DNA of 64,000 bases, from assembly GCA_964016885.1 (NCBI GenBank), contig OZ024763.1, positions 18,414,001 through 18,478,000 of the forward strand, in the 5' to 3' direction. Each line of letters opens with the position of its first letter. The first letter of the stretch is position 1. Below the pieces are notes generated by a model. It saw only the letters and a list, made by a program, of their open reading frames with translations. It was not told where the DNA came from and did not search any database. Shown here in pieces: positions 807-58,204 of the stretch. The DNA is from Eledone cirrhosa (taxonomy: Eukaryota). The translations under genes were made by a program, and so were the position numbers.

Positions 807-865
807 TTCATTCTGAGGATTGAAAGCAAAATTTTTTTGCTTTTAAGAAACCACTGGTAAATGGA
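807..865 (+). ncRNA. Type I hammerhead ribozyme (predicted)
   Basis: Stem I ttcatt/aatgga; CTGAGGA at 813-819; 12-bp stem II ttgaaagcaaaa/ttttgcttttaa; GAAA at 847-850; stem III CCA-c-TGG; GUA cleavage triplet. Confidence 0.8.
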
Positions 866-1354
866 ATAATTGCCTTATGTTGTTTATTACATAACTATTA
901 AGCTCTGTTACCTACATAGAGCACTCTTTTTTCCTGGACTTTTCCGACGGAATTACTTTATATATATATATATATATATATCAAAATGAAAATCCGAAGG
1001 CAAGGTAAAATTTCCAATCATTTTAATCACGACACATGTTTCAATAAGAGATAGATCGATCGTGAAGCCATGATCGATTATCACTGATCTCGTCAGGTGA
1101 AAATGAATTGTCTTCAAATTCTTGATATGAGGGAGAAAATTAGCAATGTTCACTCAGAGTTTTATTCCCTTATATATATATATATATATATATATATATA
1201 TATATTGCAGAGTATAAAAGTTTTAATATATTCTAAAGAATGAAACAGCTCTAGTCCTGTAGAATCTCATATATATATATATATATATATATATAAAAGA
1301 AGGATTAGATAGGTTTATTTGATATTGTTGTAAACTGGACATATATGTTAGGAA

Positions 1355-1800
1355 ATAATTGTCTCTACTTTAGGCACAAGGCCAGCAAATAACCCAGTGC
1401 ATTACTGGTACTTTATTTTATCGACCCCGTAAGGATGAAAGGCAAAGTCAACCTCGGCGGGATTTGAACTCGGATCGTAAAGGGACGTAACTATGCTGCA
1501 AAGCATGGCGTCCGACCCTCTCCCGATACTGCCAATCCACTATATGTTAGGAAATAATAATAATCAATTTCGTTAGGAAATAATAATCAATGATTTCTAT
1601 TATAGACACAAGGTCAGCAATTTTCGGGGAGGGGAAAGTCGATTAAATCGATCCCAGTGCATTACTGATGCACGATTTATCGACCCCGTAAAATAATTGT
1701 TTCTACTTTTGGCACAAGGCCAGCAATTACTCAGTACATTACTGGTACTTTATTTTATCGACCCCGTAAGGATGAAAGGCAAAGTGAACCGTAAAATAAT
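1355..1800 (-). mobile_element. Nin/Deu-domain tRNA-derived SINE copies
   Basis: Reverse complement of gagttcaaatcccgccgaggttgactttgcctttcatccttacggggtcgataaaataaagtaccagt. Further copies near 5524, 12285, 12515, 15630, 20700 and 48165. Confidence 0.8.
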
Positions 1801-1988
1801 GATGATTAAAATGAAAAGAGTAAGTATATATGTATATATATATATATATATATATATATAACGAAGGAGTTGTGGTAAGGAACCAGATGGACCTTAACGC
1901 ATCAGAGTACTCATTACTTAGGGTAGTAGAGTGGGTAATGCTTGAGCTCTGCCGTCGGGGTCATACTTTTTCCTATATATATATCTAT

Positions 1989-2192
1989 CTAAGGCGGGTA
2001 AAATTCCCGAGATCCATGGACGAGTTCTCTCCAGCGGTCTCTGTCCCTCATTATCGCTGCCATATCCTGCATCTCCAACAGACCAGTGTCTGTCCTTAGG
2101 GCATCAACATATGTTAACCTTGGTCTTCCTCCTCTAGTGTGTCCATGTAGGGGCTCCCAAAGGAGCACTGAGTGCAATGTCAACTCTGGATG
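1989..2192 (-). mobile_element. Non-LTR retrotransposon 3' fragment (RTEX/Proto2-like) in (TA)n
   Basis: Translates as HPELTLHSVLLWEPLHGHTRGGRPRLTYVDALRTDTG...RDRDRWRELV. Confidence 0.75.
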
Positions 2193-2218
2193 TGTGTATA
2201 TATATATATATATATACA

Positions 2219-2316
2219 CATTTATTATGGCTAGGTGGTGAGTCTTGTTACTCTGGAGTTTCACCCACACTCGCAGGATCATCAGACAAGACTCACCACA
2301 AAGCCATAAATAAATG
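2219..2316 (-). ncRNA. Type I hammerhead ribozyme with long stem I (predicted)
   Basis: Minus strand reads gtggtgagtcttgt-CTGATGA-tcctgc-gagt-gtgggt-GAAA-CTC-ca-GAG-TA-acaagactcaccac. Stem I extends to about 30 bp with an internal loop. Confidence 0.85.
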
Positions 2317-2959
2317 AATATTCAAACTCTTCCCCGGTATTGAGTACTTTTTTCTCACGTCCGTCAATAACACCATACATATATGTAGGAGGTGATCTTA
2401 TATATATATATACACACACACACATATGTATATATATGTGTATGTTAAACATTTTCTCTGTCCCTTATTGTTCAACAAATATATCATTTTTTTTTATTTT
2501 GGATAAACTTTTTTTGATTTCGAAGCCGATCAAAAAAGCCGCCAGTTCTGGCCTCATTTAAAAATGTACACATGTTCTTTTAAACCTGACACACTCTTAA
2601 AATTATGTTTGTGTGTGTATATATATATATATATATATATATATATATATATATATATATATATATATATATATATAGTTATGTAATAAGCAACATAAGA
2701 TAATTATTTCAGAACGAGTAAATAACATTGTGTTTATTAAATATGGATTTAATAAACACACAATGTTATTTACTCGTTCTCACGACTGAAGACAGATATA
2801 AATATGTCTTCAAGGAACCACTGGTAAATGAAATAATTATCTTATGTTGTTTATTACATAACTAAAATGCTCTGTAGACTATATAGAGCACTCTTTTTTC
2901 TTTTACCCTTTACCTTTCCTACGGAAATACTTCATTTATATATATATATATGTGTGTGT

Positions 2960-3212
2960 GGCTCAAAAGTGACACAGAGGAGACTGAGGTTGGCTGGACA
3001 TGCTCACCGACATCCAGAGTTGACATTGCACTCAGTGCTCCTTTGGGAGCCCCTACATGGACACACTAGAAGAGGAAGACCAAGGTTAACATATGTTGAT
3101 GCCCTAAGGACAGACACTGGTCTGTTGGAGATGCAGGATATGGCAGCGATAATGAGGGACAGACCGCTGGAGAGAACTCGTCCATGGATCTCGGGAATTT
3201 TACCCGCCTTAG
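2960..3212 (+). mobile_element. Same LINE 3' fragment, opposite orientation
   Basis: SKVTQRRLRLAGHAHRHPEL...; near-identical to 1989-2192. Confidence 0.75.
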
Positions 3213-55160: not shown

Positions 55161-55182
55161 TTTGTTTTTGTATTTATCACAG

Positions 55183-55323
55183 CGAAACACTTTTATGATT
55201 GGTCTGAACTTCCTGTAGACGATACTTGTGTCCAAAGTCTGAGACGGTGTTTACAGAAGTACACATATTTATCTCATATATTCCAGAAGTTCATTACAAG
55301 TTCTGTACCAACCACAGAAAATG
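55183..55323 (+). CDS. AHCTF1: ELYS coding exon 17 (SKHFYDWSELPVDD...PTTEN)
   Basis: tcacag| ... |gtcagt; phase 1-1. Fills the expected gap between exons 16 and 18. Confidence 0.88.
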
Positions 55324-55611
55324 GTCAGTCTAGCAATCTACTGCTTTTTCTTTTTTGGTTTTTTTATCTTTTCACGGTAGAGATGATGAAGCAGTTGGCA
55401 GGTAAGCAGTATACAGCAGTAATGAAAGGTAATCACCCAGAAACATTAGTGTCTGCTGTTCTGTTTATATGACAACACAAGAGCAAAAAGGATGGGGTTG
55501 TTCTACTCATATGGCTTAAGAGGCTGTTTGCATAATTGCAAATGAATTGAATATGAAAATTAATAATTGAAAAACTCAGATTTGCATTTATATATATATA
55601 TATATATATAT

Positions 55612-55945
55612 GGAGGCACATGGCTTAGTGGTTAGAGCATTGGCCTTGCAATCGAAAGGTTGTGAGTTCAATTCTCAGACCGGGTGATGTGTTGTTTCCT
55701 TGAGCAAGACACTTTATTTCACATTGCTCCAGTTTACACAGCTGTAGAAATGAGATGATAGGACTGGGGTCCCTATCATTCCACTGCAAAGTGGTCGTGG
55801 AGGTGCCACGGCAAAAAAGCACCCAGCACTCACTGTAAATGAGGTTGGTGTTAGGAAGGGCATCCAGCTGTAGAAATCAAGCCAGAATCAGTTCCCGTCC
55901 CACCCTTGCAAGCAGGGAAAAGGGGACGTAAAATGATGATGATGA
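55612..55945 (+). mobile_element. CORE-type SINE
   Basis: Same family as 5835. Confidence 0.88.
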
Positions 55946-56256
55946 TATATATATATATATATATATATATATATATAAATGCAAATCTGAGTGATAAAAT
56001 TTGCTCCTAACGAAATACTCTGAATGAACCTGCAGAAGTAGAATCAGCCGGTTCCATACAAGGACCACATCTTGAGCTACATGCCGGAGAAACAATTGTA
56101 ACACGAAATAAACTAAGTCCAGATGCATCACTGATTTTTCGTTTTCTTTATAATATCTACACTCTACTCTGATGAATATCGAGTGCTAATTTTGGCATAC
56201 CGTCTACGGAAGCACCTTAGCTACCACTATACACAACTATATATATACATATATAT

Positions 56257-56465
56257 ATATTTATTAAAATAACAGATTAAAGTTTAAGCAAAGAATCGCT
56301 GCTTTCACCCTTAACGGGATCTTCTGAAACTAACAAAGTCGATCTGTAAACGCAGAACTGGATATTTCAAAAAACGTTGCAACCGTTGTTAGTTTCAGAA
56401 GATCCCGTTAAGGGTGAAAGCAGCGATTCTTTGCTTAAACTTTAATCTGTTATTTTAATAAATAT
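56257..56465. repeat. Fold-back element with 80-bp arms
   Basis: Arms 56257-56336 and 56386-56465; contains CAGAAGA-tccc-gttaa-gggt-GAAA. Confidence 0.85.
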
Positions 56466-58168
56466 TTGCTCTACGGTTCTTATATATTTGATATATATTT
56501 ATCCTTATCGAGCCCTCTTTGGATTTTAGTCTTCAAATTTATTATTATTACTATATATATATATATATATATCATTGACATCATTGTTTAACGTCCATCT
56601 TCCACGCTAACATGGGTCAGACGGTTTTGTTCCATTTGATGCGGGAATGGTCAGGAGACCACGTCTCACTCGCGCGGAAGCATTTCTGGCAGGTTTTTTT
56701 TTACAGCTGGATGCCATTCCTAACACCAACCACATTTGCAGTGTGGACTGGGAGCTTTTTCACCGTGTCTCCTACACGGCCACCTTACAGTGTGGACTGT
56801 TGTGTCATCGACACAGTGGACAGAACGGGAGAGGGAGGCTGGGGTAGGTGGTGGTGGTGGTAGGGTGTACATTGAGTTAAGAGGTTATTGGTGCTCTGAA
56901 ATAGCGATGAATGTATGTATAGTATATTTGGCAATTACTGTATGTCTAATTAAAAACATTTTGAAGACCATTCCCTATGAGTTTTAAAGTAGTGACTATG
57001 TCACTTACTTATTCTTGGCAAAAGCAAAGAAGAGTAATCGACAGTCCTGTTTTTCGCTCATTAGCATTTATCAAGACCACTCGCTCCTTCACCTCTGCCG
57101 AGAGTTATAGAAGTTGGTTTCTTATAAAATTCCAGTAATATTTAAGAGCTGATTAAACATATATATATATTTGATTAAACATATCATCACCACCGTTTTA
57201 CGTCCGTTCTTCCACGCTAGCATGGGTTAGAAGGGTTGTCCTGTTGTAGGCAGTGTCCGGTCGGCTGGCCTTGTCTTGCTTATATGGGAACTAACATGTA
57301 TATATATATATATACATATATATATATACATATAGAATCGTATAGGTGTCACAACAGGACAACCCGTCTAACCCATGCTAGCGTGGAAGAACGGACGTAA
57401 AACGGTGATGATGATGATGAACCAAAGTTATGTTGGTGCCACAACATCCAGGCCGAAACAAATGAGGTTGTGTAGGTGTCACGACAAAAAAAAACACACA
57501 GTTCACGCTGTAATGTGGCCGTGTAGGTAACACAGTAAAAACCTCCCAGTCCCACACTGTAAATATGGTTGGTGTTAGGAAGGGCATCCAACTGTAGAAA
57601 ACCTGCCAGACAGTTCTATGCGAGCAAGACAATCACTCTTGCCTCAAGTGGGAAAACCCCCGTCCAAACCCATGCAAGCATGGAACACGGACGTTAAACG
57701 TTGATGATGATGATATATATATATATATATATATATATATATATATATATATAATATAGTGAAGGCGCATAGCTTAGTGGTTAGAATGTCGGGTGGGCTT
57801 ACAATCATGAGGTTGTGAGTTCACTTCTCAGACCAGACTCCGCGTTGTGTTCTTGAGCAAGACACTTTATTTCATGTTGCTTCAGTTTACTCAGCTGTAG
57901 AAATGAGTTGCTGGTGCCAAGCTGTATTGGCCATTGCCTTTCTCTTGGACAACGTCTGTGGAGAGGGGAGTCTGTTATGTATGGCTGACTGCTGGTCTTC
58001 CACAAAACAACCTTGCCTGGAGAGGAACTTTCTAGGTTAAAATCCCATGGTCATTAGTGACTGAAGGGTGTTTTTACCTTAGATGTCAACATGAATGGAC
58101 CTGTTATTTTCATCTAAAGACATTTTTTCCAATTCCACTCCGTCCCTCCCTCCAATATAATTTCTCAT

Positions 58169-58204
58169 TCTTCTGATGAAGGACTAGAATCCGAAATGTT
58201 AAGA
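58169..58204 (+). ncRNA. Minimal type I hammerhead ribozyme (predicted, probably decayed)
   Basis: tctt-CTGATGA-a-gga-ctagaa-tcc-GAAA-TG-TT-aaga. Stem III ATGT could be a CpG-decayed palindromic ACGT. Confidence 0.65.

Follow-up and report, generated by a model that had tools for sequence, protein, structure and literature searches.

The window analysed here, a stretch of 64,000 nucleotides (nt) from the octopod Eledone cirrhosa (contig OZ024763.1, positions 18,414,001 to 18,478,000), contains short islands that carry hammerhead ribozyme motifs and lie beside TA repeats. An earlier note, made from the letters of this DNA, had read them as a separate non-coding, retrozyme-like class mobilised in trans, and the question raised by the locus is whether they are such a class or the remains of something larger. 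We conclude that the islands are very probably the 5′-truncated, often folded-back ends of protein-coding Penelope-like retrotransposons that carry a hammerhead in their terminal repeats. Labels such as L123 denote stretches fetched from the same genome (assembly 3.0 Gb).

The hammerhead motifs in the window are real

All five loci named in the earlier note were confirmed to have the anatomy claimed for them: a core heptamer, stem II, GAAA, a short stem III and UH, with stem I closing. We scanned the window with a descriptor that tolerated an extra nucleotide after A9 or unpaired positions 10.1/11.1; it was relaxed after the window loci had been inspected, so the adjacent 190 kb constitute the independent test. 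With the canonical core, the window gave 5 matches, where 200 local dinucleotide shuffles averaged 0.005; the corresponding figures for the adjacent 190 kb were 18 matches and 0.03 (30 shuffles). When core positions 4 and 6 were left free, the window gave 8 matches against 0.04 in 50 shuffles. The 5 canonical matches correspond to four of the named loci plus 1027-1100 on the minus strand, a locus that the earlier note had overlooked. The remaining named locus, with hammerheads at 18608-18673 and 18816-18877, fails the descriptor because stem II has only 2 bp before an internal loop, and was verified by hand instead; its hammerheads sit on opposite arms of a single fold-back insertion and count as one element.

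The motifs could in principle be chance matches in AT-rich, hairpin-prone DNA. The tuning of the descriptor on the window and the weak folding of the monomers would suit that explanation, as would the outcome of the Rfam check that the earlier note had proposed, which returned no hammerhead family among the matches listed at the loci tested (in one search, the best 150 of 410). The shuffle counts argue strongly against it, and so do the equal position of the motif within the terminal repeat across unrelated families, the changes in stem III that keep its palindrome, and the hammerheads published for the Hydra clade of Penelope-like elements, which share this layout in the part of the supplement available (PMC8557442). 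We consider a chance origin extremely unlikely.

The loci are copies of dispersed, genome-wide repeat families, which we named by window position (A 2285, B 813, C 18665/18822, D 19848, E 58173, F 37423, G 56396 and H 1096). They are, with strand in parentheses:

775..975 (+): family B stub; hammerhead 806-866, predicted cut after 859 (GUA); tail, then TA repeat
979..1175 (-): family H stub; hammerhead 1027-1100, with canonical core, long stem II and GUC site
2217..2375 (-): family A stub; hammerhead 2235-2299, U.U at 10.1/11.1
2675..2949 (+): decayed relative of family B, about 74% identical to B; 5′ inverted arm; core and GAAA mutated
18472..18877 (two arms): family C fold-back insertion; left arm (-) with hammerhead 18608-18673 and full tail
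within 18472..18877 (+): family C right arm; hammerhead 18816-18877, ended early by TA repeat
19141..19360 (+): stub of a further hammerhead family; core 19263, stem I broken here; short inverted arm
19693..19921 (-): family D stub, Neptune-like in appearance; hammerhead 19812-19852, extra nucleotide after A9
37188..37556 (two arms): family F fold-back, apparently Hydra-type; left arm (-) with complete fold 37341-37427, core CCGUCGA (U4C + A6U); right arm (+) with core deleted
38187..38330 (+): stub with the 3′ half of a hammerhead; one other copy seen (L198)
56257..56550 (two arms): family G fold-back, apparently Hydra-type; folds 56281-56331 (-) and 56391-56441 (+), core CAGAAGA (U4A)
58081..58291 (+): family E stub, likely Neptune-like; minimal hammerhead 58169-58204 with an added A following A9; this copy's stem III has decayed at a CpG

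The earlier note had also listed five degenerate or partial cores. This description stands for 19263, a copy of a real family (intact in L139) with its stem I broken, and for 38229, where only the 3′ half is present. At 2786, in the decayed relative of family B, the apparent core is a stem II strand, and the true core at 2779 is mutated, as is GAAA; at 37340 and 56396 the fold is complete and the core non-canonical. Core heptamers at 13408, 15887 and 53372 have no relatives among the fetched loci, and the relatives of the one at 56169 are without the core. In family A, the long stem I of 2235-2299 is built by a 5′ inverted arm (about 2286-2375), the native stem I being ~8 bp (L015/L016); the same arm disposes of a reading of this stem as the terminal inverted repeat of a miniature inverted-repeat transposable element.

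Young and old families are present at high density

Identities were taken from the best 40 candidates scored per search. Copies of B (40 scored), C and H are 97-100% identical to the window copy, those of D and E about 86-91% and those of A 79-92%; B, C and H are young families, and A is old. Across 925,593 fetched bases, which overlap one another and are enriched by selection, the descriptor matched 358 times in more than 15 sequence clusters, and eight families were traced, in agreement with the several parallel families at high density proposed earlier. The hammerheads are of type I with a palindromic stem III, also as proposed: all 36 distinct stem III variants of the C-type group are self-complementary (TATGTA 16, TGCGCA 12, TATATA 8), which as three forms represent few independent events.

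Most copies of family A (L001-L030) start at the 5′ strand of stem I, and only 2/30 have the upstream body; this start at the ribozyme possibly reflects a stop of reverse transcription or a template switch. The fold-back stubs at 18472-18877, 37188-37556 and 56257-56550 would form long double-stranded RNA if transcribed, with the hammerheads buried, and we speculate that they are potential substrates for A-to-I editing.

Longer copies encode Penelope-like proteins

The islands in the window have no open reading frame (ORF) within them, as the earlier note stated; the families do, in their longer copies. Extension of the flanks, a check suggested at the outset, reached a Penelope-like endonuclease or a full ORF in all eight families, and the stubs are the 3′ ends of coding elements. 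In B, C and G, full copies were found in which direct pseudo-long terminal repeats (pseudo-LTRs) enclose an ORF for reverse transcriptase (RT) and endonuclease, bearing out the Penelope-type ends that had been suspected:

L121, family C parent: inverted truncated copy, repeat 3613, ORF 3827-5842, repeat 7675; unit 4.06 kb
L123, family B parent: inverted truncated copy, repeat 5377, ORF 5631-7763, repeat 9199; unit 3.82 kb
L278, family G parent: repeat 1927, ORF 2112-4206, repeat 5186; unit 3.26 kb

The three proteins are 35-42% identical to one another and have in common RWK/R (RWK in B, RWR in C and G), DKT, YRDD and CxCX5C, with YxG motifs present besides YRDD; that of family B ends in CxxC..E..N..CxH and is represented by an open frame of 715 amino acids in L175. 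All 150 scored matches to the family B RT core (from 38,371 first-look candidates) are 94-100% identical, and 21 of these, counted from the table, lie in open frames of at least 700 amino acids. Among 8,000 public sequences scored, 1,433 are homologues of this core, nearly all unnamed. A profile built from 60 of these homologues detected an endonuclease upstream of family F in 5/25 loci, and likewise upstream of H and A; the family F loci with an upstream endonuclease are L220, L219, L215, L221, L211 and L288. A Hydra-type endonuclease lies 1.5 kb upstream of family H in one locus (L286), and family A has an endonuclease upstream in L316 and L332, bridged by L328 and L311. Family D shows a CX4CxxC linker and then GIY-YIG in L114 (Pfam E 1.3e-4, at the cut-off). 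Family E adjoins the end of a canonical, non-Hydra endonuclease, pieced from fragments L075/L076 overlapping L090, and in twenty further loci the sense strand showed no parent ORF. In L188, two G motifs lie 3.6 kb from each other on the same strand; this pair was rejected as a full element, having no ORF and identical flanks around its motifs.

Insertions target TA repeats and are truncated at the 5′ end

A TA repeat lies within 260 nt of the matched site in 14/25 copies of A, 23/29 of B, 17/18 of C, 10/16 of D, 16/19 of E, 21/22 of F and 14/15 of H, counting the loci whose site was matched (out of 30 A, 30 B, 18 C, 20 D, 20 E, 25 F and 15 H given), and within 200 nt in 28/30 copies of G. At fixed distances, this adjacency amounts to 56-95% by family against a background of 35%, which upholds the proposed targeting of TA repeats. 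The 3′ ends abut TA repeats at fixed distances after the hammerhead and fall into two classes (49 and 138 nt in C, 53 and 157 in F, about 32 and 90 in A, about 29 and 111-115 in G); the tail continues to the start codon of the next unit in B, C and G. The inverted truncated ends that had been described recur in 20/30 copies of B and 11/30 of G, and 5′ ends and inversion points differ copy by copy.

From known Penelope biology, we propose that the element's own protein would nick TA repeats and that reverse transcription would start at two internal sites downstream of the hammerhead, giving the main end and the optional tail; according to the available text on an anole Penelope-type element, that element has two internal start sites for target-primed reverse transcription (PMC11167929). 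Copying would mostly stop early, and the second start would produce the inverted arm. In the parent RNA, the hammerheads are predicted to cut as dimers via the palindromic stem III, a route described in the parts available of earlier work (PMC4209133; review PMC6765202), and in solitary or folded-back stubs they are predicted to be mostly passengers. The predicted cuts fall after 859 in B, 18616 in C, 1031 in H, 56436 in G and 37345 in F (window positions). Every insertion reads through the cut site, so the template RNA would have been uncut or re-ligated.

These observations bear on whether the islands are instead non-autonomous retrozymes or SINE-like (short interspersed nuclear element-like) hammerhead elements, spreading as short RNAs via another element's enzyme. 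Stubs are far more numerous than full copies, and some 5′ ends cluster, in family A at stem I, in family B at one palindromic spot and in family E near 100 nt upstream, although there the query set that length. The available part of a recent report derives animal retrozymes from Penelope repeats and, as here, places type I hammerheads of non-LTR retrozymes in short Penelope-related repeats; those retrozymes are non-coding tandem units, whereas the copies here are dispersed, inverted stubs of coding elements (10.64898/2026.07.22.740005). None of the tandem arrays in the window holds a hammerhead scan match, 5′ ends and inversion points vary among copies, and every traced family continues into an endonuclease or ORF, although the link of family H rests on one locus and that of family E on overlapping fragments of different loci. 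We therefore reject the separate non-coding class mobilised in trans and the retrozyme system of the earlier note, and regard spread as short RNAs as very improbable.

Several points weigh against the derivation of the islands from coding Penelope-like parents. For monomers, the minimum-energy fold is more stable than the predicted hammerhead fold by 0.5-7.1 kcal/mol. Only fragments of the parents were recovered for D, E and H, and the family of 19263 lacks a traced parent. No Pfam RT or GIY-YIG model matched the B, C and G ORFs and no solved structure in PDB matched the family B ORF; the GIY-YIG label for these families is given because of their motifs and a match of homologue P0002 (E 1e-5). 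The units of B, C and G, at 3.26-4.06 kb, exceed the published ‘generally <3 kb’ of Hydra elements, a tendency and not a strict rule (PMC8557442). Finally, the stubs could be re-copied in trans.

Six families appear to fit the Hydra clade

Judged by motifs and TA target, families A, B, C, F, G and H appear to fit the Hydra clade, whose marks are RWK/R, DKT instead of DKG, CxCX5C and a TA target (PMC8557442, section 11). The CxCX5C linker, with CxxC and CxH around E and N and no CCHH, is found in B, C and G, and the linker also in F (L220) and A (L332); RWK/R and DKT were seen in B, C and G only, and A, F and H were judged from the endonuclease. A canonical hammerhead is present in A, B, C and H and absent from F (0/25) and G.

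The Hydra elements of Craig et al. (2021, PMC8557442) resemble those described here in their single ORF, with RT and then a C-terminal endonuclease, in the RWK/R, DKT, CxCX5C, CxxC and CxH motifs, in the TA target and in the 5′ inverted copies, and, in the part of File S2 available, in a hammerhead near the 3′ end with a U.U pair and a palindromic stem III. Unlike the published elements, those in E. cirrhosa comprise at least six families in one genome at very high copy numbers, with tails of about 55-105 nt rather than 30-40, two non-canonical cores and a second internal hammerhead in family B. The available supplement already contains an octopus Hydra family with a hammerhead, Hydra-1_Obim, whose visible protein part shares many motifs with family B by eye; the visible part of the table gives one octopus family, without a pseudo-LTR. 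The stubs belong to known biology, and their lineage is partly catalogued. A 2026 O. vulgaris annotation reports, in its accessible parts, 31 recently active Penelope-like families, and ‘Hydra’ and ‘ribozyme’ do not occur in the portion of its main text available (PMC13282606). A literature search on octopus hammerheads and the Hydra clade gave Craig et al. as the sole relevant paper, as judged from the listings.

Families D and E look Neptune-like. The CX4CxxC linker of D, seen at one locus, precedes a C-terminal GIY-YIG, and E adjoins a canonical, non-Hydra endonuclease end, its CX2-5CxxC linker not having been recovered; as both are known from endonuclease fragments without RT, Nematis or Penelope/Poseidon would be possible too, above all for E. 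The minimal metazoan Penelope hammerheads of Cervera and de la Pena (2014, PMC4209133), in the parts of that paper covered, share with those here the type I fold, the extra nucleotide after A9, a palindromic or missing stem III, mostly single truncated copies, opposite-strand pairs and many families per genome, and D and E fit them directly. The core variant given in those parts is U3-A8; U4A and U4C + A6U go unmentioned there.

Families F and G carry altered cores

A 26-letter pattern for the family G core that leaves positions 4 and 7 free finds 23,083 exact matches in the genome and 0 in the control, and position 4 is A in 95/100 of the first-listed matches. Of 30 fetched copies, 3 have U there, all of them products of fold-back junctions; such junctions in the G core make a canonical heptamer on one arm, without the native stem I (L251, L265, L267). 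No variant of at least 2% was seen at position 4 in assembled contigs (two runs, one sample); the contigs derive from four runs of one study with library type unstated, and they may include the source sample and so give variant spectra only. The full unit L278 has the U4A core in both repeats. In family F, 16/25 copies chosen by upstream sequence have the CCGUCGA core and none is canonical. An inverted pair at L058:2307-2500, with a U4C core and complete stems, is possibly a third variant family.

We lean towards the explanation that the F and G folds are dead ribozymes and that both families move without cutting their RNA. U4 and A6 belong to the core, and the accessible parts of two papers describe low activity for the U4C and A6C variants (PMC3088659) and an anole element whose hammerhead mutants did not impair insertion in vitro (PMC11167929). 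No spare canonical hammerhead was found in the 5 G and 2 F 3′ regions examined, and G is nonetheless abundant. Against this explanation, all stems, GAAA and UH are retained; the 72 nt around the G fold have no variant of at least 10% against 12 such sites in 140 nt upstream, though the downstream tail is likewise conserved; and U4C suffices for a viroid in vivo, according to the same partly available source (PMC3088659). Restoring U at position 4 in silico moves the G folding gap only from 2.1 to 1.8 kcal/mol, which does not support a trapping of G in an inactive fold by U4A. A literature search found no paper on a hammerhead with U4A. The cores of G and F may be new, as may the second hammerhead of family B described below; Lunse et al., who reportedly worked on short Penelope hammerhead variants, may already cover these cores.

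One genome thus pairs young canonical families (B, C, H) with high-copy altered-core families (G, F), which makes it testable whether a Penelope element depends on hammerhead cleavage for its movement. Should G and F prove not to cut, cleavage would be dispensable in vivo, in agreement with the in vitro study; should they cut, the hammerhead consensus would have to be broadened, and tens of thousands of motifs in this genome would be escaping standard descriptors. The little-studied Hydra clade is a large, recent part of an octopod genome, and its open full-length frames could serve biochemistry.

Family B has a second, internal hammerhead

In 27/30 B copies selected by RT (L123:7992-8098, L124, L158-L187), a second hammerhead lies 0.3-0.45 kb past the end of the ORF (less in one copy with a deletion) and about 1.2 kb before the terminal one, and the stretch between them is simple-repeat rich and non-coding. 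Position 17 is G in 27/27 internal and A in 30/30 terminal hammerheads. Hammerhead cleavage sites follow the NUH rule, so the internal hammerhead is predicted to be uncleavable. It could still donate its core to a partner within a dimer; an explanation by neutral self-insertion is equally good. None of 11 core columns has changed, against 16/91 others, a difference that is not significant as a sign of selection because about half of the 16 columns lie past the homology end. It is rather doubtful that both hold jointly, that is, that the altered cores of G and F work and that the internal B hammerhead is a dimer partner lending its core to the terminal site.

Other repeats and neighbouring features

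Two further repeats in the window have hammerhead-like parts. An abundant one at 654-757 and 1880-1975, beside TA runs and often folded back, has 120 matches in the fetched loci and looks to hold the 3′ half of another hammerhead; 1238-1270 and 18356-18440 hold the 3′ half and tail of a further hammerhead family (a cluster of 7). Tandem arrays at 6740-7906, 10053-12051 and 59316-61438 have units of 106, 47 and 61 nt that are 95-97% identical; another array, TA-rich and 6 kb long, occupies 22359-28379. Fragments and a near-complete copy of a long interspersed nuclear element, presumably RTE-like, lie at 29542-34372 and 44508-47505, with endonuclease and RT frames, one of which is split by a long TA array. 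The octopod identity of the host is borne out by a nucleoside diphosphate kinase frame at L127:1843-2346, some 8 kb ahead of the window; it is uninterrupted and shares 88% identity with the Octopus sinensis protein and 81% with that of Argonauta hians, the next matches being at or below 65%.

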